Of a stretch of 64,000 bases of DNA, positions 2,750 through 64,000 are shown piece after piece (the stretch's first letter is position 1; each line of letters starts with the position of its first letter). Made by a program: the position numbers and the translations under genes. The notes under the pieces are model-generated. The model saw only the letters and a list, made by a program, of their open reading frames with translations. It did not search any database and had not been told where the DNA came from. This DNA comes from Prochlorococcaceae cyanobacterium (lineage in GTDB: Bacteria; Cyanobacteriota; Cyanobacteriia; PCC-6307; Cyanobiaceae), in the NCBI GenBank assembly GCA_044356735.1, contig JBIKVR010000001.1, positions 145-64,144 on the forward strand, read 5' to 3'.

Positions 2750-5209
2750 TCAGGCGGCCTCCCCGTAGAGGGCGGTCTGCAGGTCGTGCACCGCCCGCTC
2801 GAAACCAGCCTTCGAGCCGAAGGGACGCAGCAGCTCCAGTTGGGTGCCCATGGCACTGAACGGTGGAATCCGCAGGATTTTCACGTCGGCCAGCTCGTCC
2901 ACCACGCCGCCATCCTGGTACTTGGCCAGCAGGGCCTCCAGCACTGCCCGGGCCTGGGGGCCATAGCGGCTGTACACCCCTTGCTTTTGCACCCGTGCGG
3001 CGCGCTCGCGGCGGGATAGGGGCGGCTGGTCGTAGGCGATGTGGCAGATCAAATCAAAAGGATCGAGCTCCAGGCCCAGCTCCTCCTGCAGCGGCTCCAG
3101 CAGCAGCCCCTCCTCCGCCAGCTCCTGGATGATCGTGGCCTTGCGCTGCTCCCCCCGCCAGCGACGCAGGAAGACATCGAGGCTGGCGTACTGCTCGCGC
3201 ACCGTCTTGCGGCTGTAATCGCGTAGAGATTCCGTCACCAGCTTGCCGTTTTCATCCAGGTATTCGATCCGCTCGGTGAGCACGCGCACCGGCTTGCCCT
3301 TGATGTAGTACTTCTGACGTGGCTCGCCGGGAGGCTGAGGGTCTGGGGGATTGGGATTCACCAGAATGGACTCTTCCCCGTTGTCGCCGCAGTCCTCTTC
3401 GTCCGGATCCTCATTCAGCGGATCCGTCTCGCCGGTGGATTGCTCCGGCGGCAGCGGTGGATCATCTTCGCCTGGCTCGTAGATCTGTACCGGCTCGCCA
3501 TCAAACCCCGGATCCGCAAAATGCTTGCTGGCTTTGCGGAAATCCACCAGGGTGAAGTAAAACTTCTGGCTGTCGGCATGCACCCGCGTGCCGCGTCCCA
3601 CGATCTGCTTGAACTCGGTCATCGAGCCCACCTCCCGATCGAGCACGATCAGCCGGCAGGTCTGGGCGTCCACGCCCGTGGAGAGCAAGCGCGAGGTGGT
3701 GACAAGCACCGGCCAAGGATTCATCGGATCGATGAAGTCATCGAGGGCCTTCATGCCCTCCTCATCGTTGCCAGTGATGCGCATCACATAGCGGCCGTTG
3801 GCCTGCACCAGATCCTGGTTTTCATTGATCAGCGCCTGGCGCATCATCAGGGCGTGCTCGGTGTCCACACAGAACACGATCGTTTTCTGCATCCGATCGC
3901 CGCTGGCCTTGAGGTAATCGCTGATCCACTTCGCCACCCGGAGGGTGCGTGCATCGATCACCAGCAAGCGATCAAAATCCTTCTGGTTGTAGAGGCGATC
4001 CTCGATCTCCATACCGCGATCATCCACCTCTCCAGGCTTCGGGCGATAGCCCTCCACATCAATATCGAGATGCACGCGGATCACCTTGTAGGGCGCCAGG
4101 AAGCCATCGCGTATGCCCTGCTTTAGCGAATAGGTGTAGAGCGGTTCGCCAAAATAATCGATATTCGACACATACTTGGTTTCCTTCGGCGTTGCGGTAA
4201 GGCCGATCTGGGTGGCGGCGCTGAAATACTCCAGGATCTCGCGCCAGGCCGAATCCTCCGCCGCGCTGCCGCGGTGGCATTCATCCACCACGATCAGATC
4301 GAAGAAGCCCGGTGAGAATTCTTTGTAGAGCTTCTGGCGCTCCTCCGGCCCGGTGAGCGCCTGGTAGAGACCCAGATAGACCTCATAGGAGGTGTCGATG
4401 CGGCGCTGCTTATTCAACGCCAGCGCGATCGTTTCCAGGCTGCCATCAGTCCGCTCAATGGTTTTTGAGGCCGTGCTCAACTTGGCCATCGCCGGCCCAA
4501 ATGGCCGGAAGTCGTTGACCATCGTCTGGTTCACCAGCACGTTGCGATCTGCCAGAAACAGGATTCGCTTCTTTTGCCCCGCCTTCCAAAGCCGCCAGAT
4601 GATCTGAAAGGCGGTGAATGTTTTGCCCGTTCCGGTGGCCATCACCAGCAGAATGCGCTGCTGGCCTTTGGTGATCGCCTCCACCGTGGCCTGGATGGCA
4701 TTTATCTGGTAATAGCGCGGGTCTTTCCTTTTGCCACCGACGTAATAGGGATGCAGCACCACCTTCTCCTGTTGGGGCGTGAAGCCCTTCCAGCGGCTAT
4801 AGCGGCGCCAGAGATCCTCGGGGCTGGGGAAGGCCTTAAGGGCCAGGGTGGTTTCGCGTTCTTCGCTCTGGCCGGTGCGGTCGTGGAAAACGAAGCCATC
4901 GCCGTTGGAGGCAAACACAAACGGCGTGTTCAAGGCCTTGGCATAGGCCAGGGCCTGCTGCAGGCCGTCGCCGATGGCGTGGCTGTTGTCCTTGGCCTCG
5001 ATCACCGCCAGGGGCACACCCTCGTACACCAGCAGGTAGTCGGCCCGCTTGCACCGGCCCCGGCTCACCAGCCGCCCGCGCACGATGATGCGGCCATCGG
5101 TGAACGAATACTCGCGCCGCATTCGCTCCAACAGCCAGCCGGCCTGCTGCAGCGCCGGTGTGATGAAGCGATCGCAGATCTCGGTTTCGCTGAGGGCGCG
5201 CTTGGTCAT
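2750..5209 (-). CDS. hsdR: Type I restriction endonuclease subunit HsdR
   Basis: 819 aa. N-terminal nuclease region (ADYLLVYEG...IEAKD), helicase motifs LLVMATGTGKT and VVDECHRGSA, and the typical HsdR C-terminal domain. Confidence 0.95.
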   Translation of the reverse strand: MTKRALSETEICDRFITPALQQAGWLLERMRREYSFTDGRIIVRGRLVSRGRCKRADYLLVYEGVPLAVIEAKDNSHAIGDGLQQALAYAKALNTPFVFASNGDGFVFHDRTGQSEERETTLALKAFPSPEDLWRRYSRWKGFTPQQEKVVLHPYYVGGKRKDPRYYQINAIQATVEAITKGQQRILLVMATGTGKTFTAFQIIWRLWKAGQKKRILFLADRNVLVNQTMVNDFRPFGPAMAKLSTASKTIERTDGSLETIALALNKQRRIDTSYEVYLGLYQALTGPEERQKLYKEFSPGFFDLIVVDECHRGSAAEDSAWREILEYFSAATQIGLTATPKETKYVSNIDYFGEPLYTYSLKQGIRDGFLAPYKVIRVHLDIDVEGYRPKPGEVDDRGMEIEDRLYNQKDFDRLLVIDARTLRVAKWISDYLKASGDRMQKTIVFCVDTEHALMMRQALINENQDLVQANGRYVMRITGNDEEGMKALDDFIDPMNPWPVLVTTSRLLSTGVDAQTCRLIVLDREVGSMTEFKQIVGRGTRVHADSQKFYFTLVDFRKASKHFADPGFDGEPVQIYEPGEDDPPLPPEQSTGETDPLNEDPDEEDCGDNGEESILVNPNPPDPQPPGEPRQKYYIKGKPVRVLTERIEYLDENGKLVTESLRDYSRKTVREQYASLDVFLRRWRGEQRKATIIQELAEEGLLLEPLQEELGLELDPFDLICHIAYDQPPLSRRERAARVQKQGVYSRYGPQARAVLEALLAKYQDGGVVDELADVKILRIPPFSAMGTQLELLRPFGSKAGFERAVHDLQTALYGEAA

Positions 5210-43717: not shown

Positions 43718-44025
43718 CAGCTGCAATCAGCAGACAGGCCAGGGGCCGCCAGCGGCCGTAATTATTAGCGGCTGGCACCGGGAGTGGTTGCTGGCACTTG
43801 ACTGGCAGCAGGCGAATGCTCTTCCGGGCAGGGAATGCCCGGAAACCAGTAGAGCTCTTGCCTAGCAGCGCTGCTCGCCGCTGCCAGGCGAACCACTGAA
43901 TGACGAACTGCTGCCTGGCGAGTTTTTGAAGGGCGAATTTTCGGTGGGCGGCCCTGGGATTGGCGAACTGTTGACTGGTGAGCCTCAGACTGGGTCTCAG
44001 TGATTACCGCCCCTGGCCGGAACCG

Positions 44026-46116
44026 ATGGACCCTCGCTTCCGGGTTGACCTGATCGCCGCCACCCCCCACCCCCAACAGTGCGTCTACGCGGCGATGCAC
44101 CAGGACTACAGCGAGGGCTACGTGGTGGACGATCGCGCCAACTGGCCCGAGGAAAGCCGTGCCGGCGAGATCTGCGTCAAGCGGCTTTTGGCGGGGGAGC
44201 GGGGCCATTACGGCCCCCTGGAACACGGCCAGATCGTGCTCAATGTGGGCTGGTTTCCCCATTCCGTTATGCAGCAGGCCCGCACCCATCGGGTGGGAGT
44301 TAGTTTTGATGTGCAATGTCTAGCTGGAAATACTGAAATCACCTTCCTTAATGCCGGAGGGGGCTTAAAGAAAATCAGGATCGATGCACTGCACGACCTC
44401 TGGACCCACGGAGAGCGGGCGACCCGGCAACGGCAGATCCGAGGCCGCCATGGCGAAGCGCCGGGCACCTACCGGCGCGATTGTCGCCAGCGGCTGCAAA
44501 AGATGAAGCTACGGGTACTAAATGAGACCACGAAAGTCTTCGAGACGAGCCAGCTCACTGATGTGATCTGCAGCGGGCTGCAACCTGTCTATCGGCTCAC
44601 CATGGAGGATGGCCGCAGCCTGGACTGCACCGCCAACCATCGCCTGTTCACGCCCCAGGGTTGGCAGACCATGGCGGAGGCGCTCTCCCTCCGGGTGGGG
44701 CGAGATGGTGGTGTGCAGAGCTTCCGCCGCACCGCCCAGGTGCTGGCGAACGGCAACGTGGCTGTGGGTAGCGGAGCCTACCGGGATTCGGGCTGGCTGC
44801 GGCAACAGGTGGAAGCCGGGGCTACCCCGGGGGAGATGGCAGACCGAGCGGGCTGCTCGATCACCACAATCCGGGACTGGGCCCGTCGCCATCAGATCCA
44901 ACTGAAGGAAAACAGCAGATGCTTTCAACCTGGAGACAAGCCTTGGAACCACAACCCATCAGCGCTGTATCGGCAGCAGGAATGGCTCCGGCAAAGGCTG
45001 GAGGAGGGACTGCATGTCAACGAAATGGCTGAACTCGCAGGCTGCTCAGGGGAAGCAATCAAGAAGTGGGTCTATCACTACGGCCTGACCCTGAATCGTC
45101 GTCCAACCGGTTTCCAGAAGGGCACACAACCCTGGAACAAAGCGCGCGGTGGTTACAGCCTGCAGCTGTCGGAGTCGTCGCGAGAAGCGCGGTGTGCCCA
45201 CGGTAAACGAATCACCCGACGGGGCTCCGAGTCAAACTTTTGGAAAGGCGGTGTTTCTTCTGAACGCGAGTTAATTGGTGCCTGGACGCGGCAGATTGCG
45301 CCCCAGGTTCATAGACGCTTCGATTACACCTGCCAACGCTGTGGCCTGCGAGGTAGCGACCAGCAACTGCATGCCCACCACCTGGTGCCGGTTTATGCGG
45401 ATCCAAGCCTGGGCTGCGAGATGGACAATCTCGTAACCCTTTGCCAACCATGTCACGCTTTTATTCATAAGCACCAGCAGGAGGCCGACTTTGCCGCAAC
45501 GTTCAGCCCGAGGAAACCGGTCACAGATTGGCCTGAAAAGCATCACCCTCAAGGCCGGAGATTGATGGCCCATCCACTCACCGTGGTGAACGTGGAGTTC
45601 CTGGGAACTCAGATGACCTACGACCTGGAGGTGCAGGGGCCGTGGCACAACTTCGTGGCCAATGGGCTGGTGGTGCACAACTCGATGCGCTATACGGGCG
45701 AACGCATAGTTCGCGCCGCCAACGGACATACAGATCTAGAGGAAGTGTTCTACCTGCGACCGGTGGGTAACTACAGCGATCGGCAGGGCAAAAAGTATTT
45801 TTACTCGCCAGAAGAAAGGGCAAAAGATCTGGAACTTTGTCTTGCCGCCGCTAAACGCTACTCCGACATGATGGATGCGGGCTTTGCGGAAGAACATGCC
45901 CGCGGCATTCTGCCCTTTGACTACCGCCAGCATTTTGTGGTGAGCTTCAGCCTGCGGGCCTTCCTGCACTTTCTAGACCTGCGGGCCAAGCTCGATGCCC
46001 AGGACGAAATTCGCCATCTCTGCGATTTGATGTGGCCCCACCTGCAGAACTGGGCCCCTGAAATCGCCGCCTGGTATGAAAAGAGCCGCCTGCATAAAGC
46101 CCGCCTAGCCCCCTAA
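44026..46116 (+). CDS. thyX: FAD-dependent thymidylate synthase ThyX, interrupted by an intein
   Basis: Exteins: MDPRFRVDLIAATPHPQQCVYAAMHQDYSE...HGPLEHGQIVLNVGWFPHSVMQQARTHRVGVSFDVQ | SMRYTGERIV...FSLRAFLHFLDLRAKLDAQDEIR. The ORF is open from a GTG at 43978. The spliced length is about 241-257 aa. Confidence 0.9.
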   Translation: MDPRFRVDLIAATPHPQQCVYAAMHQDYSEGYVVDDRANWPEESRAGEICVKRLLAGERGHYGPLEHGQIVLNVGWFPHSVMQQARTHRVGVSFDVQCLAGNTEITFLNAGGGLKKIRIDALHDLWTHGERATRQRQIRGRHGEAPGTYRRDCRQRLQKMKLRVLNETTKVFETSQLTDVICSGLQPVYRLTMEDGRSLDCTANHRLFTPQGWQTMAEALSLRVGRDGGVQSFRRTAQVLANGNVAVGSGAYRDSGWLRQQVEAGATPGEMADRAGCSITTIRDWARRHQIQLKENSRCFQPGDKPWNHNPSALYRQQEWLRQRLEEGLHVNEMAELAGCSGEAIKKWVYHYGLTLNRRPTGFQKGTQPWNKARGGYSLQLSESSREARCAHGKRITRRGSESNFWKGGVSSERELIGAWTRQIAPQVHRRFDYTCQRCGLRGSDQQLHAHHLVPVYADPSLGCEMDNLVTLCQPCHAFIHKHQQEADFAATFSPRKPVTDWPEKHHPQGRRLMAHPLTVVNVEFLGTQMTYDLEVQGPWHNFVANGLVVHNSMRYTGERIVRAANGHTDLEEVFYLRPVGNYSDRQGKKYFYSPEERAKDLELCLAAAKRYSDMMDAGFAEEHARGILPFDYRQHFVVSFSLRAFLHFLDLRAKLDAQDEIRHLCDLMWPHLQNWAPEIAAWYEKSRLHKARLAP
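44317..45681 (+). mobile_element. Intein (455 aa) with HNH homing-endonuclease domain, inserted in the ThyX RHR...S motif
   Basis: Starts with CLAGNTEITF (block A Cys1). Block B is DCTANHRLFTPQGW. The C-terminal blocks are MTYDLEVQGPWHNFVANGLVVHN followed by the +1 Ser (SMRY). Internally there are YTCQRCG...HAHHLVPVYADPSLGCEMDNLVTLCQPCHAFIH (HNH with CxxC pairs) and two HTH-like repeats (GEMADRAGCSITTIRDWARRH / NEMAELAGCSGEAIKKWVYHY). Confidence 0.85.
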
Positions 46117-54638: not shown

Positions 54639-57515
54639 CTAACCCACAGGCTTTGCCGGTAACTTCCGGGTGATCCGCTGTAATTGGCGCGTTTCCAGGG
54701 CCAGCACCCGGCGGGCGAAATCGGGATCCTGCTCCAGGGTGGCGTCAAATGAATCCACCGGCACCGCCAGCACGCGGGTGCCAGCTGTCTCGGCCACGAT
54801 GGTGTTCTCTGAGGCGCTTTGGGTTAGCACCTCCAGTTCGTCGAGCACTTGACCCGGTTGCATCTGGCTGACCCGCAGCTGGTCGCCGCTGCGATCTTCC
54901 ACTCGGGCAGCCCCTTCGATCAGCAGCAGCAGCTCACGGCAGGTGTCCCCCGGCTCCGTGATCAAAGCTTCCGCCCCATAGACACGGATCTCGGCCCGTT
55001 CCGCCAACAGATCGAGGGTGTCGGCCCAGGTGCGGCGGAAAAAGTCGCTGGTGGCGAGCACCACGCGTTTTTCCAGTTCCGGCAGAGCCTCCAAAGCCAC
55101 TGGTCCCGCCAGTTTCAGCAGCCGCTCGGCTGTGGTCAGCACCCAGGCGGGCCGGCCGGCCTGGCTCAGATTTGCCCTCCAGGCCAAGCCCAGTTCAGGA
55201 TCCAGGCCGGCAGTCAGCACTACGGCCGCCGTGGCCACGGTGGGGTCGGGGTCCTGGGCCAGCCGCTCCAGATGCATCAGCGTCGCTTCCCTTGGCAGTG
55301 GGGGGCGGGAGTCTGCTGACCCCGCCGCCGAGCTGAGCAGCTGCTCCACCAGTTGGGCAGGAAGTTGGGCGGGCAGTTGGGCGGGCCAGGGTTGCCGCTC
55401 CAGCAGATTTGTCAGCGCCGGCAATGCCAGGGCCCGCAGCCGGGCCCGCAGCGGCTCGCGGGCCGGGTTGGTTTCCAGCTGGGGCAGGCAATCCAGGATC
55501 GCCCGCAACACCAGCTCCTGGCGATGCCGCAACCGGTCGTCGAGCAGGGCAACCAGCTGGGGCTGCTCCCGCAAGCAGGGTTGATGCAGGGCTTGCACCG
55601 CGGCGGTGAGCTCCCCCAGCCTGTCCAGCAGCAGCGCGGCTCTGCGAGCGGCCCCCTCGGCTGGAGACAGCTTCTCGCGGGCCTGGGCCTCCTCCAAGGG
55701 GCTGATCGAGTACTCACTGCCCAGGGCAGCCAACACCGCGGCCTCGCCACTTCCATCTCCACCTCCATCTCCATCTCCAGCGCCCCGGCCAGCGCCAGCG
55801 CCACCTCCCGCCCCTGTCCCGAGCTGACCCTGCAACCGCAGCAGCCGTTCCAGCGAGCGGCGGTATCCGCTGAGCCGAACCTGGTCCTCCAAGCTGCGGC
55901 GCCGTTCGGGATCCAGCAGGGTCGGATCCTCCACCCCCAGCTCCTCCAGCAGCTGGCGGTGCTCATCGTCTGAGATGCCCAGCTCCTGGCGCATGCGCCG
56001 CAACACCTCCAGGCTGCTGGCGGCATTTACATAGCCTTCCGCCAGGGCATCGCGCACCACTCCCTTATAGGCATCGTGTCGCTGCTCGTTACCAAATCCC
56101 GGCAAAATCCGGGCTAATACGTAAACCTCATCGGGGTTGAGATCCCCCAGGCTGCGGCCCTCAAGGAACCTTGCCACATCGAGGCCCAGCTTCTGCAGCT
56201 GGCGCCGGAACCGCTCCGCCAGATTCTCCCTGCCATAAAGAGCCGGATTGCGGTGCCAGTTGCGCACCAGCCACAGGGAGCTGGTGGCCACCAGGGCCAT
56301 ATCGAACAGGTATTGCAGCCAGGCCGGAGCCAATTGCAGCAGGGGCCTGCCCGCAAACAGAAAGAAGAAATTGAACACCAGGAAAGTTGCCGCCAGAAAC
56401 ACCCGGTGACGAATCAATGCCTTGTCTGGCTCAGCCCCCTGCCGCCGCACCCGGCGCCGCATCCAGGCCTCGATGGCCCTGCCGGCCAGCCAACCCAGCC
56501 AGGTGCAGAGCCCCAGTACCAGGGGCACGGCCACAATCCGGGGCAGATTGATCGCCTGGCCCCCCAGGTACAGGCCGGGGCTGAACAGCAGCGATAACTG
56601 ATCCGGTTGGCGCACCCAGGCACCGGAGAAGTAGTACTGCCAATTGCCGGCATAGAGATAGTAATAGAGGAAATAACCCACCACCAGGCCCACATAGCCG
56701 TAGCGCTCGAAAGCGAAGGCCGGCGTCTCGATGCGCGCCCAATACATGCGCTCGGAGTCGATATCTATGCAGGGTTGCTGGCAGGCCACGCAGGCGCTCT
56801 GCTCTTCGCCGTTGGCATCTGTGCTGCGACACATCGACTGGGTGATCGTTGTGGGGCTCAGATGGGCTCTGCTGCCCAGCAGCCCGGCCGGAGCCGAATA
56901 GATCGACTGCACCGGTGCCATCGGACAGAAGTATTGACACCAGGCCTTGCCGCCATATAACCAACCCACCGCGACTGCGGCGACGATCGTGAACAGCAGC
57001 CAAGCCGCCAACACCAGCCGGTCGGCATTGAAAAACAGGATTCGACCGCACAGCCCAACGTACAGCCAGCCGAACTGCAAGGCCGAGTAATGCTTAGCCA
57101 ACCAGGAATCGGGTGACACCCGGGCAAGTTGGCGGCGAAACTCGCCGGTTTTCGGGTTGCGCTTGGCGGTCTGTCGCTGCCAGCCGAGCGCCCTGGGGAT
57201 CTGGGAGATGAAGGAAAGGGGACAGATTCGCCGCCATAGTTCGTGGCCGAATACCAGCAGCACAAAAATGGCCGCCGGCACCACCGCACCCCAGAAAATT
57301 GTGGTGCCCAGGGGATAGGGCATCTCCACAAGACAGCGGCCCTGCACCTCCACGCAGGTGCCTGGAAGCCGCAGCGGACTCCAGGGGTGATCGGCTGCCG
57401 TGAAGCGAGCCGTGAATGGATCGAAGAACAGGGAGCCGATGATCAGCAACCAGCCGGTGGTGAGTAGCCATCTCAGCCAGTGCATTTGGATCTCGCTCAC
57501 CCGCGAGCCGGCCAT
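54639..57515 (-). CDS. Large multidomain membrane protein: NapH/4Fe-4S-like polytopic N-domain, helical middle, C-terminal cyclic-nucleotide-binding domain
   Basis: 958 aa. The N-terminus has RICPLSF, WCQYFCPMAP and CVACQQPCIDID within TM segments. There is a Gly/Asp-rich linker. The C-terminus ...GDTCRELLLLIEGAARVEDRSGDQLRVSQMQPGQVLDELEVL...TIVAETAGTRVLAVP is cNMP-binding (CAP-like). Confidence 0.8.
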   Translation of the reverse strand: MAGSRVSEIQMHWLRWLLTTGWLLIIGSLFFDPFTARFTAADHPWSPLRLPGTCVEVQGRCLVEMPYPLGTTIFWGAVVPAAIFVLLVFGHELWRRICPLSFISQIPRALGWQRQTAKRNPKTGEFRRQLARVSPDSWLAKHYSALQFGWLYVGLCGRILFFNADRLVLAAWLLFTIVAAVAVGWLYGGKAWCQYFCPMAPVQSIYSAPAGLLGSRAHLSPTTITQSMCRSTDANGEEQSACVACQQPCIDIDSERMYWARIETPAFAFERYGYVGLVVGYFLYYYLYAGNWQYYFSGAWVRQPDQLSLLFSPGLYLGGQAINLPRIVAVPLVLGLCTWLGWLAGRAIEAWMRRRVRRQGAEPDKALIRHRVFLAATFLVFNFFFLFAGRPLLQLAPAWLQYLFDMALVATSSLWLVRNWHRNPALYGRENLAERFRRQLQKLGLDVARFLEGRSLGDLNPDEVYVLARILPGFGNEQRHDAYKGVVRDALAEGYVNAASSLEVLRRMRQELGISDDEHRQLLEELGVEDPTLLDPERRRSLEDQVRLSGYRRSLERLLRLQGQLGTGAGGGAGAGRGAGDGDGGGDGSGEAAVLAALGSEYSISPLEEAQAREKLSPAEGAARRAALLLDRLGELTAAVQALHQPCLREQPQLVALLDDRLRHRQELVLRAILDCLPQLETNPAREPLRARLRALALPALTNLLERQPWPAQLPAQLPAQLVEQLLSSAAGSADSRPPLPREATLMHLERLAQDPDPTVATAAVVLTAGLDPELGLAWRANLSQAGRPAWVLTTAERLLKLAGPVALEALPELEKRVVLATSDFFRRTWADTLDLLAERAEIRVYGAEALITEPGDTCRELLLLIEGAARVEDRSGDQLRVSQMQPGQVLDELEVLTQSASENTIVAETAGTRVLAVPVDSFDATLEQDPDFARRVLALETRQLQRITRKLPAKPVG

Positions 57516-57892: not shown

Positions 57893-58510
57893 ATGAACAA
57901 CTCTGTCTCCACCAGATCCCTGGCCCTGCTGGCCGGCTTCTCCTTGCTGGCCACCCTGCTGCTGGATCAACCGGCCCATGCCCATGGCATCGCCCAGGGC
58001 TTGGGCTTGGGCGGCGGCCTCGCCGGCTTCCTGCATCCGATCACCGGCGCCGACCACCTGCTGCTGCTGATCGGCGTGGGGGCGGCCGGCGCTTGCATCT
58101 CCCCCCAGCTGCTGCTCTGGGCGCTGGCCGGTGCCCTCGGCGGTGGGATCTACGGCGCAATCGGCGGCAGCCTGCCGGGCCAGGAGTTGCTGGCGGCCCT
58201 GGCGATCACGGCCCTGGCGGTGCTGGTGCTGCGCAGCCTGCAGCCAAAACAGAGCCCGCAATTGGGCTTCTGCGCCGCCCTGGTGGCCACGGCCGTGGCG
58301 GTGCACGCCATGCTCCACGGCCTGGAGGCCCCAGCCGATGCTGCCGCCGCCCTCTGGTGGCTGGGGGCCTTCGCGGGCTCAGCTCTGGTGAGCGGCGGCA
58401 GTTTCCTGTTGCTGCGGCGCCTGCCCCTGGCCTGGAACCGGGGCTTGGCCCTGCTGCTGGCCCTCTCCGGTGGGGTGGCGGCCCTGGCGCCGATCGGGCT
58501 GCTGCGCTGA
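57893..58510 (+). CDS. hupE: HupE/UreJ family metal (Ni/Co) transporter
   Basis: MNNSVSTRSLALLAGFSLLATLLLDQPAHAHG...GFLHPITGADHLLLLIGVGAAG... I use the internal ATG at 57893 of ORF 57668..58510; the upstream part covers the riboswitch. Confidence 0.85.
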   Translation: MNNSVSTRSLALLAGFSLLATLLLDQPAHAHGIAQGLGLGGGLAGFLHPITGADHLLLLIGVGAAGACISPQLLLWALAGALGGGIYGAIGGSLPGQELLAALAITALAVLVLRSLQPKQSPQLGFCAALVATAVAVHAMLHGLEAPADAAAALWWLGAFAGSALVSGGSFLLLRRLPLAWNRGLALLLALSGGVAALAPIGLLR

Positions 58511-58623
58511 CGCTGCAGTGGGGTGAGGGGACTGGCAGCGTCCGCATCAACGATCGGTTTCGGCTCTGCTTTCGCTGGAGCGACAGCGGCCCGGAAGACG
58601 TTGAAATCGTTGATTACCACTGA
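58510..58623 (+). pseudogene. higB: 5'-truncated higB toxin remnant (last ~37 codons only)
   Basis: The frame ending at TGA 58621-58623 reads ...LQWGEGTGSVRINDRFRLCFRWSDSGPEDVEIVDYH*. This matches the C-terminal third of HigB/plasmid-maintenance-killer proteins (...W.v.in..wRl.F.......v....DYH). The expected roughly 55 N-terminal residues are missing, and the remnant starts at the hupE stop codon. Confidence 0.7.
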
Positions 58624-58632
58624 AACCTACCC

Positions 58633-58926
58633 ATGCCCCGCATCGATCCCATCACCCCCGGTGAACTTTTCCAGGAGGAGTTCCTCGAACCCCTGGGCAT
58701 CAGTCAATACCGCCTGGCAAAAGCCATCGGCGTGCCCGCCTCCCGCATCAGCGAGATCATCACCGGCCAGCGGGCAATCACCGCCGATACCGATCTGCGC
58801 CTCTGCCGCGTTCTGGGTCTCAGTCCGGGGTACTGGTTGTGCGCCCAGGCCGCCCACGACACAGAGGTGGCCAGCGCCTTGCTGGAGGAAGAGCTGGAGC
58901 GCATCCAGCCGTTGGTGAGCTGCTAA
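58633..58926 (+). CDS. higA: HigA-family antitoxin (XRE HTH)
   Basis: MPRIDPITPGELFQEEFLEPLGISQYRLAKAIGVPASRISEIITGQRAITADTDLRLCRVLGLSPGYWL.AQAAHD is the canonical HigA pattern. Confidence 0.85.
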   Translation: MPRIDPITPGELFQEEFLEPLGISQYRLAKAIGVPASRISEIITGQRAITADTDLRLCRVLGLSPGYWLCAQAAHDTEVASALLEEELERIQPLVSC

Positions 58927-59309: not shown

Positions 59310-59573
59310 TTGCCACCCGGCTGCAGCTCCACCCGAATCGGCAAGTGCGACTTCGAGTGGACCCAGCCCGGCCTGGATCAGGAAGCGCGAATCACCTGCG
59401 ACTTCAGCTACTACGAAGACAACAGCGCCAGCATTAAGCTTTGGGTGCAGGGAAGCCAATTGTTTACGATGCATGAGGTGACCGAAGCTGTCGGGCACTC
59501 TCAAATTCAGGCCCACAGAAGTAAGCTTGATACCACTCTCGGCACGAACCCAGGAGCCAATCAGCATCGATGA
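59310..59573 (+). CDS. Hypothetical ORF whose stop overlaps the start of the STAND NTPase gene (ATGA)
   Basis: 87 codons open from a TTG: ...KCDFEWTQPGLDQEARITCDFSYYEDNSASIKLWVQGSQLFTMHEVTEAV.... There is no in-frame ATG before codon 54, and an adjacent frame (MLGNLEVILDRSEF, from 59269) may be its disrupted N-terminus. Coding status is uncertain. Confidence 0.3.
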   Translation: MPPGCSSTRIGKCDFEWTQPGLDQEARITCDFSYYEDNSASIKLWVQGSQLFTMHEVTEAVGHSQIQAHRSKLDTTLGTNPGANQHR

Positions 59574-62500
59574 ATCACCTCCTTGATGTCACGGGTGCAG
59601 ACATCGGTCTCCTCAGTGATGCTGATCTGCGGGTACTCACTGGGAAGCTCTGTGAGGCCGACTACCTTCAAGCAGGCTTGCCCACGTATGGGATCAGATG
59701 GGGTGGCCATCAAGATGCAGCAGATGGTGGTGTTGACGTTCAAGTCAGCAGACCTCCTGAATCGGATTGCACCATTTTCTCACCACCATCGGATAGCCAA
59801 ATTCCACGAGCTGATACTGTTTTTCAAGCCAAGCAGTGCAAGATGCCTAGGAGTTCAATCCTTGCGGAGATGGGCAAGGCTGGTGTTGTTCAACTTCTGG
59901 GCGAGCTGGCCTCTGTTGACGGAGCATATGTGATCGTCAGCGGAGAATCAACAACAAAGACGATGTTGGAAGATCGCATTGCAGCGATGCGGCAGGCCGT
60001 TGGATTAATCAGCAATAGTCATCGCCTTGCTCTTGACTTTTACGATCAGACCACAATTGCTAGCTGGGTCCGGCGACACGATACATTGATTCACTGGGTA
60101 CTTGAGAGGGTTGGCAGGCCGTCCTCCGGATGGCGCACTTATGGTTACTGGGCCAGCGGCAGGGGAACAGTTGAAGATTGCTATTTGCTTGATACGCGGG
60201 CAAAATTGATACCTCCCGGATCAACAGGTGAACCTGTGCCGATTGTCGAGGGCATACAACAGCTTCGCAGCCGCCTATCAAACTCACAGCGTGCGGTGCG
60301 ACTTGTTGGTCTGTCTGGGGTTGGCAAGACACGCTTAGTACAAGCACTATTTGATCCCCGGATAGGCAGTGAAGCACTAAATAAACATCAGGTCTATTAC
60401 GCTGATGGCTCATTAGCAACCCAGCCCGATCCCGTTCAACGTGCCGATCAACTGATCGCGGGAAGGCACTCAGCATTTCTCGTTATCGACAACTGCAGCG
60501 AGGAACTTCATCGAGCCATCAACCAACGATGTTGCCAGGAGAACAGCAATGTTAGATTGCTCACTGTTGAGTATGACATCAAAGAAGATGCTCCAACGGA
60601 AACGGATGTTTACCGACTGCAGCCATCAGACGATCAATTGATCAAAGAGCTGATCAGCCAGCGTTACCCAGAAGTCAGCCAGATCGACCGCTCAACGATC
60701 GCGAGATTTTCGGAAGGAAACACAAGAGTGGCGCTGGCGCTCGCTGATTCAGTTATGCACGATGGCAGCCTGGCTGGTCTTGGCGACTACGAGCTGTTTA
60801 AACGTCTCTTCTATCAGCGCAATGGAGAAGATAGGGGTTTGCTGGAAGCGGCCAAAGCGGCTTCATTGGTTTACTCATTCAGCATTGATGAAAATTCAGT
60901 AGCTGGATCAGAACACTCCGTTTTAGCAAATCTCTACGAGCAAACCGCAAAAACAATGCTTAGAATGCTCTCAGAGCTAAAAAGGCGAGAACTACTCCAG
61001 GCCCGCGGCCCATGGAGAGCCGTGCTTCCTCAAGCCATATCCAACAGACTTGCCAATGAGGCTTTACAAGAGCTTCCAGTACAGCAGATTCTACAAGCTT
61101 TTGATCCCACAGAAAATCAAAGGCTGCTTAAGTCATTCTGTCACCGAATAGGCTTTCTTCACGATGAGTCTGTTGCTGTACAATGCGCAAGTGAATTTCT
61201 ATCACCGGTCGGTCCCATCGGCTCCAGGCTTTTGAGAAGTGAAACATGGCACAAAGAAGCATTCTATCGTGAGCACTGGGATATAGACTGCCTTGTTTAT
61301 CTTGCGCCTGCTGATCCCAATGCGGCTCTACAGCTTATCGAAACTCTAAGCAATGGCACGGAAGGCGAACACTTCACATCAAGAGATAATCCACACTTTT
61401 CAAGAGTTGTAGGGCTCCTGTGCAAAATTGCTTATTCCGCAGATCTTTTTCCCCGAGCCATAGCGATCTTATTGCGGTTTGCACTAACTGAACAGCCAGG
61501 CGAGAACAACAACTCCATTCGCCATCAGATCAAGCCTCTCTTTCAGCGGCACCTATCTGGAACAATGGCACCTCAAGCTTTAAGGCTGGAAGTTGTCGAA
61601 AGCCTTTTGGATGCGCAGGATGCCAGCAGGAACGGGCTTGGTTTCTATTTACTGGAGGCCATGCTGAAGTCATCAGGTTTCATGTCGTACAATACCTTTG
61701 ACTTTGGCTCACGATCGCGAGGTTTTGGATACATTCCACCCACAGTTAAAGACGCCCAGCATTGGCATGAGACTGCCCTCAGTTATTGCGTGAATCTGGC
61801 AGTTTTCGATGATCCACGCTCGATTGAAGCTAGAGCCTTGCTTGCTCGTCAATGGAGATCACTCTGGCTGAATGTCAAACTTTACGATTTCATAGAAAAG
61901 ATCACTCGTGATCTTCATGCCCATCAGCCATGGATTGATGGTTGGCTGGCAATCAAGCAAACAATCAGACTCGATGGCAACGACGTAGCCGCAGAGATTA
62001 AAGTCAGACTTGAAAAACTTGCCATAGATCTTGCCCCAGCAGGGCTAGTTGAGAATGTGCTCCTTTATTTGTGCAGAGATCAATTCCACTTGATAAATAT
62101 CGTGGACGATGAGAACACAGAGAAGAGTGCCAATCAAGCTTTTTTACTAATGGAGTCAACCGCCTTAAGACTCGGCGTTGAAGCAAGTCACAACAAAGAT
62201 CTAATCAAGCAACTACTTCCTATATTGGTCAAATCTCAGAGTATGCTTATCAATAAGTTTTGCGAAGGCTTGATCACAAAACTTATTGATGCAACTTGGC
62301 TCGTCGAAAGCTGTTGCTCTGCCTGGAAACAGGCTGATCCATCCAGCAGAACCGTGGATATGCTGATTGGAGTCCTGAAACAGTGTGCCGATTTAGATCG
62401 CAAATCATATGAACAATTCCTTGATAGGTTAATGATTGAGCCTGATGTTGAAGCCGTATTTCCTTGCATTCAACTAGGTCTAGATATTGACGATCAAGCA

Positions 62501-63469
62501 GTAGAGAGATTAATTGCCTGCATCTATTCAGGGAGTGCACCGCTCCAAAGCTATCAGAAACTCGGCAATGCTTCTGTCGTCCGCAGAATAGACAATCATA
62601 CACTTCTTCGCCTACTTACTGCACTCAGGGATACAGAAAACGGTGATAGTTTCATCATTACATCCTTGTGTCTTGTAGTTTATCTCTCTGAATCGGATCA
62701 GTTACCAATCTCGTTTGTCGATTTTGCAAGAGAGAGTTTGGTGAGGCAAGCCTTTTCTCGTTCTCTAGGAATGCTACCAAACTTGGACTATGAGCTTCAG
62801 CAGATTTCCCAAGCATGCCTGTGTGGAGAACAGGGTGCCGAAGCGGCAAAAATAGTCGCAACCAATCTTCTTGTGAAAATCCTCGACAATTCAGTTACTG
62901 GATATCAAGATTATCCGATGCTGATGGACTCGCTGGCAACGTGTCAGCCCGCCATTTTCCTCGATGTATTTATCGGAAGCTTATCCAGCCATCGCGAGGA
63001 GATTGATAATATTTTTGATTCCGCATCTTGGCACGATGATCTTGGTTATAGGCATAACTCGCTTGACTTGATCGATCATGAGGTTCTTTTAGACTGGTGC
63101 GAGCATGATTCCGATCATCGCTTCTCGGCTCTTGCCCAGGCAGTTCAACTTTGTTGCTCCAAGCCTGATCAGAATGGGCGGCCTGAATTAGTATGGAGTC
63201 CAATTGCCTTAGAGCTTCTTTCTAGAGCGCCAAAAATTCATGATGTACTCATTTCATTTAGCTCTGTATTCTTCCCGCGATCTTGGACGGGATCAAGAGC
63301 AGATATGATTGCCGATAGATTACCACTTCTAGATATTCTACAGCAGCATCTCAATCCCTACGTCGCCACTTGGGCCTCAGCAAAGCGCATCGAATTAATA
63401 AATTACGTGGCCAATTTGCGCACGAAAGAGAAGCAAGAAAAAGACGCAATGTTTCAAAAATTCGAATGA
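59570..63469 (+). CDS. STAND-type P-loop NTPase with N-terminal Mrr-like PD-(D/E)xK nuclease domain and about 850-aa helical-repeat C-terminus (Avs-like antiviral candidate)
   Basis: 1299 aa. Nuclease-like motif AADGGVDVQVS(x25)VFQAKQCK (aa 50-91). Walker A LVGLSGVGKTRLVQAL (60308-60331). Walker B SAFLVIDNCSEE (D307). NB-ARC-like helical/winged-helix signature YRLQPSDDQLIKELI...ARFSEGNTRVALALA. The rest is a long Leu-rich helical region. GC is about 45% by eye, against more than 60% in the flanking core genes. Confidence 0.8.
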   Translation: MNHLLDVTGADIGLLSDADLRVLTGKLCEADYLQAGLPTYGIRWGGHQDAADGGVDVQVSRPPESDCTIFSPPSDSQIPRADTVFQAKQCKMPRSSILAEMGKAGVVQLLGELASVDGAYVIVSGESTTKTMLEDRIAAMRQAVGLISNSHRLALDFYDQTTIASWVRRHDTLIHWVLERVGRPSSGWRTYGYWASGRGTVEDCYLLDTRAKLIPPGSTGEPVPIVEGIQQLRSRLSNSQRAVRLVGLSGVGKTRLVQALFDPRIGSEALNKHQVYYADGSLATQPDPVQRADQLIAGRHSAFLVIDNCSEELHRAINQRCCQENSNVRLLTVEYDIKEDAPTETDVYRLQPSDDQLIKELISQRYPEVSQIDRSTIARFSEGNTRVALALADSVMHDGSLAGLGDYELFKRLFYQRNGEDRGLLEAAKAASLVYSFSIDENSVAGSEHSVLANLYEQTAKTMLRMLSELKRRELLQARGPWRAVLPQAISNRLANEALQELPVQQILQAFDPTENQRLLKSFCHRIGFLHDESVAVQCASEFLSPVGPIGSRLLRSETWHKEAFYREHWDIDCLVYLAPADPNAALQLIETLSNGTEGEHFTSRDNPHFSRVVGLLCKIAYSADLFPRAIAILLRFALTEQPGENNNSIRHQIKPLFQRHLSGTMAPQALRLEVVESLLDAQDASRNGLGFYLLEAMLKSSGFMSYNTFDFGSRSRGFGYIPPTVKDAQHWHETALSYCVNLAVFDDPRSIEARALLARQWRSLWLNVKLYDFIEKITRDLHAHQPWIDGWLAIKQTIRLDGNDVAAEIKVRLEKLAIDLAPAGLVENVLLYLCRDQFHLINIVDDENTEKSANQAFLLMESTALRLGVEASHNKDLIKQLLPILVKSQSMLINKFCEGLITKLIDATWLVESCCSAWKQADPSSRTVDMLIGVLKQCADLDRKSYEQFLDRLMIEPDVEAVFPCIQLGLDIDDQAVERLIACIYSGSAPLQSYQKLGNASVVRRIDNHTLLRLLTALRDTENGDSFIITSLCLVVYLSESDQLPISFVDFARESLVRQAFSRSLGMLPNLDYELQQISQACLCGEQGAEAAKIVATNLLVKILDNSVTGYQDYPMLMDSLATCQPAIFLDVFIGSLSSHREEIDNIFDSASWHDDLGYRHNSLDLIDHEVLLDWCEHDSDHRFSALAQAVQLCCSKPDQNGRPELVWSPIALELLSRAPKIHDVLISFSSVFFPRSWTGSRADMIADRLPLLDILQQHLNPYVATWASAKRIELINYVANLRTKEKQEKDAMFQKFE

Positions 63470-63767
63470 ATTGGGTTAATCAATTTGCATAGAATATTCT
63501 GTGTAATTTCTTCGTCGAATACAAGATGCGGCTCTAGATAGCAAAGCCTAGGACTGAATGTATTGCAGCCAGATCTTGGGGGCTTCCAGGCAAATTAGAT
63601 CCGCCGGCTATATTCACTCACCAAGCACCTACAACAGCACCTTAGCTGATTCCTTGAGCAGATCGATCCAATGTCATGGGCGTGCTGGCCGAGAAGGAGG
63701 CCAGCTACCAGATCCTCTGGGAAAGCTTCACCCGCGCCAGCAAGGGCAAGCTCGACACCCATCCTCA

Positions 63768-64000
63768 GATTACGCCACCTCGCTAAATGCCATGAAGTTA
63801 ATCATTAAATCCGCACGGGTTGCAGCGGCGCACGCGGCGAAGCGTGAACTTATCCTGCTCTACCGGGACATGGGGCATGAGATCTTGGAGAAGCAGGAGA
63901 CCATGGGCTAGGGAAAGTCGGTTGTTGAGCGGCTTTCCTCCGACCTAAAGGCGGAGCTTCCAGGAATCAAAGGATTATCCGCCAATAACCCATGGTTCAT
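63768..64000 (+). pseudogene. DUF1016 (YhcG-like PD-(D/E)xK) family gene with an in-frame nonsense codon; runs off the window end
   Basis: DYATSLNAMKLIIKSARVAAAHAAKRELILLYRDMGHEILEKQETMG*GKSVVERLSSDLKAELPGIKGLSANNPWF. This matches the DUF1016 N-terminal pattern (..AR......N.ELv.LYw.iG..I...Q...GWG.kvie.LS.DL..efPg.kGfS..N). The conserved Trp codon reads TAG at 63909-63911. No clear start codon. Confidence 0.65.

Follow-up and report, generated by a model that had tools for sequence, protein, structure and literature searches.

Gene content of the locus and family placement

The window analysed here is a stretch of 64,000 nucleotides from contig JBIKVR010000001.1 of a Prochlorococcaceae cyanobacterium (assembly GCA_044356735.1). 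Near its right-hand end lies an intact gene that we place, by sequence comparison, in the Avs8A-like (PD-lambda-4A) family of antiviral proteins. Its product comprises a predicted N-terminal nuclease domain, a STAND-type NTPase module and a long helical C-terminal region, and the gene is flanked by remnants of helicase and methyltransferase genes (Table 1). The open reading frame (ORF) and all of the sequence motifs that an initial annotation had quoted from its translation are present where that annotation had put them. These motifs are not chance resemblances, because key residues in each are invariant across 22 homologues, in an alignment that reaches down to 35% identity: D52, D56, Q86 and K88 in the nuclease domain, G247 and S249–T254 in Walker A, D307 and N308 in Walker B, and G383, N384 and R386 in the helical signature.

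A search with the PADLOC profiles, which the initial annotation had proposed, gave a full-length match to the model PD-Lambda-4_A (PDLC03991, 1283 positions; E=3.8e-250), with residues 4–1299 aligned to profile positions 3–1283. The same model was matched by each of three segments of the protein when these were searched separately (E=8e-47, 1.4e-89 and 3.4e-102), and no other PADLOC model was matched by the 1299-residue protein at E≤1. An equally long alignment was obtained using BLASTP with an Escherichia coli protein (L088:8001-11849; 29% identity, E=2e-176, residues 4–1299 against 3–1283), whose locus was traced via a homologue on an Enterobacter plasmid. The E. coli protein has 1283 residues, matches PDLC03991 at E=0, and is followed by a 303-residue PD-Lambda-4_B gene. 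PD-lambda-4 originates from the functional screen of Vassallo et al. 2022 and has since been renamed Avs8, a STAND/AVAST family (bioRxiv 10.1101/2025.07.02.662641; 10.64898/2026.01.04.697583; hereafter the Avs8 preprints). On this sequence evidence, the gene product is a full-length, divergent cyanobacterial member of Avs8 (PD-Lambda-4_A). The idea of an Avs-like protein made of nuclease, STAND NTPase and helical sensor is therefore borne out by the PADLOC match, the E. coli alignment and the classification in the preprints, whereas the accompanying suggestion that the sensor or the family might be new has to be given up, as both are already known.

The other profile searches that had been proposed, with the Pfam models Mrr_cat, NACHT and NB-ARC, yielded nothing above threshold. 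Pfam searches with the whole protein and the three segments returned only the sub-threshold matches AAA_16 (E=2.6e-4) and nSTAND1 (E=9.5e-4; 19.3 bits against a cut-off of 27.1), both near the P-loop, and left the N- and C-terminal regions empty. NCBIfam returned nothing for the protein or its segments, and sequence searches of the PDB with family profiles returned nothing meaningful. In the databases searched, the protein and its named cyanobacterial relatives carry only the name ‘hypothetical protein’. The protein sequence is present in NCBI and JGI clusters, and near-identical full-length copies occur on several metagenome contigs.

Compared with Avs8A of E. coli ECOR07 (WP_000963924.1), the window protein belongs to the same length class (1299 and 1283 residues), has the same domain order, aligns from end to end, and conserves the DGG-x-D … Q-x-K pair, Walker A, Walker B (hhhhDN) and the C-terminal …FE; the two also share an accessory, island-borne distribution. 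It differs in being just 29% identical in sequence, in clade insertions of about 7 residues after residue 60 (in a nuclease loop) and of about 10 residues near 564–573, and in its cyanobacterial host, which makes cyanophages the presumed targets. Two further differences lie in the surroundings: members of the cyanobacterial clade have, or once had, the gene linked to an operon for a methyltransferase and a helicase, and the window locus has no Avs8B gene. Searches with the E. coli Avs8B (PD-Lambda-4_B) as query, using tblastn and phmmer, found no homologue in the window or in 86 other loci except the source locus L088, and PADLOC gave no PD-Lambda-4_B match among the neighbouring ORFs of the window. 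Since defence in E. coli does not require Avs8B, we do not treat it as family-defining.

Nuclease and NTPase domains

An AlphaFold2 model of residues 1–215 (predicted local distance difference test score, pLDDT, 78; predicted template modelling score 0.76) shows, in order, a helix (17–34), three strands (42–44, 57–59 and 83–88), a helix (94–115) and a strand (119–124), which is the alpha-beta-beta-beta-alpha-beta topology known from PD-(D/E)xK nucleases. E29, which like D52, D56, Q86 and K88 is invariant in the 22 sequences, lies in the first helix; D52 and D56 come directly before the second strand, and Q86-x-K88 falls within the third. The top PDB match in a Foldseek search with this domain was the PD-(D/E)xK restriction enzyme EcoO109I, although the match is weak (E=0.07, probability 0.8–0.87), with SgrAI, Mus81 and XPF ranking lower; the isolated domain had no match at E≤0.001. 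The motif pair D-G-G-x-D … Q-x-K and the alpha-beta-beta-beta-alpha-beta core both resemble Mrr_cat, but the spacer between the motifs is longer here (about 25–28 residues) and the Pfam model itself (PF04471) gave no match to the window domain at E≤5, reaching one of 19 N-terminal domains of the family at E=0.049. Of the Mrr-type nuclease reading in the initial annotation, we thus retain the motifs, the topology and a weak structural match, while the Mrr_cat profile stays silent. Assignment as an Mrr-like PD-(D/E)xK nuclease is supported by the motifs, by the predicted topology and by the E. coli protein, in which nuclease active-site mutants lose defence (Avs8 preprints), and not by a curated profile.

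In a model of residues 1–530 (pLDDT 77), the NTPase module has a five-stranded P-loop core (strands 242–246, 275–279, 302–307, 328–333 and 346–350), followed by helices in 355–396 and then by a helical bundle with a beta-hairpin (476–484) that is winged-helix-like. A Foldseek search of the PDB with this model returned Apaf-1, Avs4 (8dgf_B), NRC2/4, NOD2 and CED-4 at E=4e-7 to 1e-5. The P-loop NTPase proposed initially therefore has invariant Walker motifs and fold matches to Apaf-1, Avs4 and CED-4 in its favour, but no NACHT or NB-ARC match in the 1299-residue protein, and ORC and clamp-loader chains match the model equally well. At the level of the model, the fold is of the AAA+/STAND type, and the more specific placement within STAND follows the published phylogeny (bioRxiv 10.1101/2025.07.02.662641; 10.64898/2026.01.04.697583). 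Both domain assignments are supported by invariant motifs, by fold matches that range from weak to moderate, and by the homologous E. coli protein, which has been characterised.

The overall plan is that of Avs1–5, and of Avs4 in particular (EcAvs4, PDB 8DGF), in which an N-terminal nuclease and a STAND NTPase are joined to a C-terminal sensor resembling tetratricopeptide repeats, and binding of a conserved phage protein leads to tetramerisation. The model of residues 1–530 matches the Avs4 structure (8dgf_B, E=3.8e-6). However, there is no match at the sequence level, as PADLOC returns PD-Lambda-4_A alone and the PDB sequence search was empty, and the two differ in sensor family and in target, which is the portal protein for Avs4 and the capsid protein for Avs8.

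The C-terminal sensor

The C-terminal region, in which 13.7% of residues are Leu, has no Pfam or NCBIfam match, but it can be aligned from end to end with the sensor of the E. coli protein and with the PADLOC models PDLC03990 and PDLC03989. A search with the sensor alone (residues 531–1299) against 1.84 billion representative proteins retrieved 1,713 clusters, and 555 of these matched at E≤1e-30. Among the matches listed, nearly all are proteins of about 1250–1290 residues in which the sensor is placed as it is here, and this wide occurrence removes the case for a new sensor. A few homologues (P0159, P0178 and P0197) carry another head, either an alpha/beta-hydrolase similar to DUF676/PGAP1 or an added LexA-type helix-turn-helix (HTH) domain. 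Such changes of head point to a swapping of effectors among proteins with the Avs8 sensor, as is typical of Avs families. By analogy with the E. coli protein, the ligand would be an HK97-fold major capsid protein.

Relative to its copy in L007, the sister genome (about 92% identity at the nucleotide level), the gene shows a mosaic pattern of divergence. The number of synonymous substitutions per site (dS) is at most 0.06 in codons 1–400 and rises to 0.73–0.94 in sensor codons ~801–1100 (window ~61970–62869). This suggests that a segment of the sensor was replaced through recombination with a divergent allele.

Distribution

Homologues were found in at least 282 of 185,579 species-representative genomes, which span many phyla. 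Homologues are also found on 43 plasmid records, 21 of which are predicted to be conjugative. Partial DNA matches to the Enterobacter homologue (42% of the query at 65% identity) occur in 176 of 5,426 complete E. coli genomes, and the single E. coli locus inspected adjoins integrases; the collection of phage genomes held no homologue. The gene is thus an accessory one that occurs in mobile contexts.

A decayed operon around the gene

The initial annotation had described an upstream ORF coupled to the gene through an ATGA overlap. The overlap is real, but the ORF is the stump of a PLD-SNF2 helicase pseudogene and not a partner gene. Its 87 residues (59310..59573) are 59% identical to residues 992–1078 of the 1078-residue helicase of a cyanobacterial relative (L001; BLASTP, E=6e-35); tblastn extends the stump to residues 987–1079, and in blastn the region homologous to the intact operon reaches back to 59251. 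On the other side of the gene, window positions 63671–63760 match L001 positions 4356–4445 (86% identity, blastn), in keeping with the fragment of a DUF1156 N6-methyltransferase gene listed in Table 1. A 99.8%-identical contig (L005) shows 2.3 kb past the end of the window, and here a further gene, g1, is intact and is followed by a 39-codon stump of the methyltransferase 5′ end (residues 1–39).

In the relatives L001 (606-11909) and L003 (1-11912), whose Avs8-like proteins are 67–71% identical to that of the window, the corresponding genes form an operon in the order g1, DUF1156 N6-methyltransferase, PLD-SNF2 helicase and Avs8-like gene, with overlaps of 4 bp at the g1/methyltransferase and helicase/Avs8 junctions. 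The 4-bp overlap of helicase stop and Avs8-like start is seen in L001, L003, L008 and L009, and the complete four-gene array in L001 and L003. PADLOC matches the methyltransferase to HmaB/DUF1156_MTase and the helicase to PLD_Helicase/BrxH/DrmD/HmaA. The g1 product of the relatives (393 residues) has no Pfam match and only weak similarity to JukB (PADLOC E~1e-7 to 1e-8). We also considered g1 (388 residues) as a divergent Avs8B, and rejected this, since PADLOC shows the weak JukB similarity and no PD-Lambda-4_B.

The sister genome shows the same arrangement as the window genome, and its copy of the helicase stump contains two in-frame stops. Two Cyanobium metagenome-assembled genomes (MAGs) differ from both patterns: L009 keeps the helicase, with the methyltransferase reduced to its last 129 codons, and L010, which belongs to the clade at 53% identity, carries no partners beside its Avs8-like gene. 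Judged from these sequences, the four-gene operon has decayed in the window genome, and the Avs8-like gene is the part of it that survives intact. A simple tandem duplication does not fit the scrambled order of the fragments, in which the methyltransferase 3′ fragment precedes g1.

Outside the cyanobacterial clade, the partnership with methyltransferase and helicase is found in none of 76 distant genome loci (80 loci examined), and de novo clustering of neighbours across the 80 loci found no conserved partner there; the gene therefore stands alone in most genomes. Canonical BREX-related (BR) systems pair a DUF1156 methyltransferase and a PLD helicase with a large STAND/ORC-like ATPase, DUF499 (PMC12839542; PMC8565338). 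Of the three core genes of BR type-2 and Hma-like systems, the operon of the relatives holds two, namely the DUF1156 N6-methyltransferase and the PLD/HKD-SNF2 helicase, with the Avs8-like protein standing where the large ATPase would be (PMC12839542; PMC8565338). In contrast to these systems, the methyltransferase and helicase of the window and L005 are reduced to fragments, and most family members have no such neighbours. We looked for a homologue of HmaC/DUF499 and found no PADLOC or Pfam similarity at E≤1.

Base composition and selection

The Avs8-like gene has a GC content of 0.474, against 0.624 for the window and 0.64–0.71 for the genes just upstream, a difference of 15–23 points. GC content at third codon positions (GC3) is 0.41–0.46 in the gene of every clade member compared (L001, L003, L007, L009 and L010) and 0.45 in that of the window, whereas it is 0.67–0.82 in the operon partners, and this contrast persists at a dS of about 0.8–0.9 between clade members. 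Across the family, 52 of 64 loci show a lower GC content in the gene than in the flanking sequence. An earlier description of the locus as a low-GC island is therefore right for the gene but not for the island, as the co-operonic genes of relatives are host-like in GC.

The ratio of nonsynonymous to synonymous substitution rates (dN/dS) is 0.21–0.25 against clade members. Between the window and sister-genome copies there are 446 nucleotide differences and no stop codon, with 19.6 stops expected under neutrality (P~3e-9); outside the divergent tract there are 172 differences, again without a stop, and 7.6 expected (P~5e-4). The adjacent 87-codon helicase stump serves as an internal control, having gained its two in-frame stops in the sister genome over the same period. 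The dN/dS ratios and these counts show that the Avs8 ORF is under purifying selection. The sister contig (CALRTY020000020.1) bears the label of a Chitinophaga pinensis MAG, but its GC content is 60% and some 11 kb of it run collinear with the window (about 92% identity), so that this is probably a binning or labelling error.

Proposed mechanism and alternative explanations

The two preprints describe Avs8 as having an Mrr-type nuclease head and the major capsid protein as its trigger (bioRxiv 10.1101/2025.07.02.662641; 10.64898/2026.01.04.697583). In E. coli ECOR07, Avs8A alone gives full defence against lambda, Avs8B being dispensable. The purified protein binds lambda gpE with a dissociation constant (KD) of 127 nM and the Bas21 capsid protein with a KD of 14 nM. 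Capsid monomers, and not assembled virions, activate its double-stranded DNase, which requires Mg2+ and ATP, and recognition works at the level of the fold, across capsid proteins that share less than 15% identity. Capsid sensing by Avs8 was also found in an independent large screen; it is known only for the E. coli and Klebsiella proteins, and some homologues, such as KpAvs8, have degenerate motifs (Avs8 preprints).

By analogy, we consider the window gene to be a divergent cyanobacterial Avs8 (PD-lambda-4A) antiviral STAND NTPase, most likely acting alone and through an E. coli-like mechanism, and give this reading a probability of roughly 65%. The resting protein would be auto-inhibited. 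During infection by a tailed cyanophage, the sensor (residues ~531–1299) would wrap a freshly synthesised HK97-fold major capsid protein, still in monomeric form, and this binding would free the NTPase module (K253, D307), which in the presence of ATP would oligomerise, probably into a tetramer. Oligomerisation would juxtapose the N-terminal Mrr-like PD-(D/E)xK domains (E29, D52/D56, Q86, K88), and these would then cut double-stranded DNA indiscriminately, halting phage replication and sacrificing the cell (abortive infection). We infer the trigger, the oligomerisation, the DNase activity and the abortive outcome from what is described for the E. coli protein.

Several observations weigh against this interpretation. 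The curated Pfam models, both Mrr_cat and those for STAND NTPases, remain below threshold, and Foldseek does not separate AAA+ from STAND, since clamp loaders and ORC score as well as STAND chains. With 29% identity to the E. coli protein, trigger specificity could differ. The closest well-preserved relatives have the gene within a methylase-helicase operon, so that the clade may need partners that are gone here. Towards the sister genome, dN/dS is 0.44, which is above the deeper branches. Finally, the operon promoter is gone, and a scan for promoters and terminators, which was uninformative, found no promoter-like site upstream on the + strand.

If the architecture and family are as described, the cyanobacterial sensor might still have diverged towards a trigger other than the HK97 major capsid protein, either a different conserved protein of phages or a further host factor. 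It is only about 25–30% identical to non-cyanobacterial homologues and has clade-specific insertions, such as the one near residues 564–573; the mosaic tract at codons 801–1100 (dS 0.73–0.94) suggests arms-race exchange of alleles; and alternative activators have been noted for other Avs proteins, for example Avs2 (Avs8 preprints). However, the sensor is collinear with E. coli Avs8A and the PADLOC sub-models over its entire length, with no domain replacement, and as E. coli Avs8A reads the capsid fold at less than 15% identity, divergence of the sensor need not change the class of target. To our knowledge, tailed cyanophages all have HK97-fold capsids, which also counts against a change of trigger, and we regard such a change as unlikely. 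We find it quite improbable that the protein is an obligate subunit of a BREX-related/Hma-like module (DUF1156 methyltransferase, PLD-SNF2 helicase and g1), replacing DUF499/HmaC and inactive or altered here without its partners. The overlap with the helicase in four relatives and the complete array in two of them are what such a subunit would show, the partners match the DUF1156_MTase/HmaB and PLD_Helicase/BrxH/DrmD/HmaA models, and no DUF499, which canonical BR systems include, was seen at the operon loci of the relatives. Yet 76 of the 80 genome loci are without the partners, as is L010 within the clade, E. coli Avs8A works alone, and the protein has no similarity to the HmaC or DUF499 models. 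Furthermore, the ORF is intact and selected in two genomes after decay of the partners, that of L009 is intact beside a decayed methyltransferase, and the GC3 of 0.45, against 0.67–0.82 for the partners, suggests a separately acquired cassette.

The preferred reading, of a protein that still works alone, must also be set against the possibility of a silent relic, in which the ORF would be intact only because of its recent history, its expression or function would have ended with the loss of the operon promoter, and decay would follow as in the neighbouring genes. The pseudogene debris around it (helicase stump, methyltransferase fragments, DUF1016 fragment and HigB remnant) would agree with this, as would the empty promoter scan and the dN/dS of 0.44 on the most recent branch. 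What makes us think it very improbable is the absence of stops and frameshifts over 1299 codons despite 446 differences (P~3e-9), or 172 outside the tract (P~5e-4), while two stops arose in the sister genome's helicase stump. Every catalytic and Walker residue is intact, and the near-identical copies in several metagenome contigs are full-length.

A broader evolutionary scenario is that, in picocyanobacteria, a BREX-related restriction-modification module (g1, DUF1156 methyltransferase and PLD-SNF2 helicase) took up an Avs8-type capsid sensor as its fourth gene, coupled in translation and filling the DUF499/HmaC slot. The window would then show the aftermath, with the modification/restriction part decayed and the sensor-nuclease (plus g1) autonomous under selection. 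We advance this scenario tentatively, as on balance it is doubtful. If true, it would describe a hybrid system that joins protein-pattern sensing to DNA-modification-based defence. The coupling in an operon, which is intact only in the relatives, is the one aspect of the locus that is potentially new.

Island boundaries and neighbouring features

An imperfect direct repeat brackets the decayed operon, with its left copy formed by the 3′ end of a HupE/UreJ gene and its right copy outside the window. A repeat search and blastn gave 89–90% identity between the copies and a spacing of 7028–7032 nt. The repeats are likely the boundaries of an island of about 7 kb that integrated at the 3′ end of hupE/ureJ, and they look like remnants of attachment sites, judging from their sequence and position; no integrase is encoded between them. 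The flanks had been described initially as toxin–antitoxin debris and a decayed DUF1016 gene. The DUF1016 part holds, as residues 68–117 match positions 8–57 of the PADLOC profile PDC-S02, with Pfam DUF1016_N below threshold (E=0.013), but the antitoxin-like gene is intact and the HigB tail is seen by eye only.

Past the right repeat, L005 12752-13540 (outside the window) contains the start of an AAA_15/AAA_21 ATPase gene with an OLD/AriA/GajA-like N-terminus (PADLOC AriA, E=6e-10), which may be a further defence gene beside the island.

Table 1. Features of the Avs8-like gene and its surroundings. Positions refer to the window unless a contig is named; L005 is the contig that extends past the window end.
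Feature	Position	Strand	Remarks
Avs8A-like (PD-lambda-4A family) gene, intact	59570..63469	+	ATG start, 1299 residues
Effector domain, Mrr-like PD-(D/E)xK nuclease (predicted), residues 1–185	59570..60124	+	E29, D52/D56, Q86-x-K88
DGGVDV, residues 52–57	59723-59740		Read in translation
FQAKQ, residues 85–89	59822-59836		Read in translation
STAND-type NTPase module, residues 226–530	60245..61159	+	Nucleotide-binding domain, helical domain, winged helix
Walker A GLSGVGKT, residues 247–254	60308-60331		
Walker B FLVIDN, residues 303–308	60476-60493		
Helical signature RFSEGNTRVALALA, residues 379–392			
C-terminal helical sensor, residues 531–1299	61160..63466	+	Homologous to Avs8 sensor; putative ligand HK97-fold major capsid protein
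PLD-SNF2 helicase pseudogene stump, last ~93 codons	59295..59573	+	TGA overlaps Avs8 ATG (ATGA)
DUF1156 N6-methyltransferase fragment, 31 codons, residues 856–885 of 993	63661..63753	+	tblastn 71% identity, E=1.2e-6
g1, intact, 388 residues	L005 11334-12500 (~window-equivalent 64131-65297, outside window)		64% identical to L001 counterpart
Left copy of ~87-nt imperfect direct repeat	58348..58434	+	3′ end of HupE/UreJ gene
Right copy of repeat	L005 12583-12665 (~window-equivalent 65380-65462, outside window)		Just past methyltransferase stump
HigB-like C-terminal tail, ending in RINDRFRLCFRWSDSGPEDVEIVDYH and a stop	~58543-58623	+	Recognised by eye; Pfam does not confirm
HigA-like HTH antitoxin gene, intact	58633..58926	+	Pfam HTH_3 E=1.3e-11
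DUF1016/YhcG-type nuclease N-terminal fragment, ~50 residues	~63756..63908	+	PADLOC PDC-S02 E=1.9e-9

Elsewhere in the window, positions 2750-5209 (− strand) hold a second defence gene, about 55 kb from the Avs8-like gene; it encodes an EcoAI/FtnUII-family R subunit of a type I restriction enzyme (match to an NCBIfam equivalog at E=0, above cut-off). A 712-residue ORF at 43978-46116 (+) shows similarity to ThyX (FAD-dependent thymidylate synthase) in two stretches, separated by an intein-like and HNH/IscB-like middle, and from this sequence pattern it may be an intein-containing thyX. At 54639-57515 (−), a 958-residue protein, conserved in sister contigs, has an N-terminus that appears hydrophobic by eye, a long acidic Gly-rich middle and a C-terminal cyclic-nucleotide-binding (CRP-like) domain. 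Also in the window is a gene for CrtR, a beta-carotene hydroxylase of the cyanobacterial type (equivalog-level match, E=3e-153).

Implications

The current picture of Avs protein function is unchanged by these findings. Their practical consequence is that entries now named ‘hypothetical protein’ can be labelled as Avs8/PD-lambda-4A-like. In terms of host range, a capsid-sensing receptor that has so far been studied in Enterobacteriaceae is extended to freshwater picocyanobacteria, in which phage defence bears on bloom and carbon-cycle dynamics. The locus also illustrates the turnover of defence islands, with a methylase-helicase module decaying around an intact sensor-nuclease, and the intact four-gene operon of the relatives offers an opening to ask whether Avs-type sensors cooperate with BREX-related modules.

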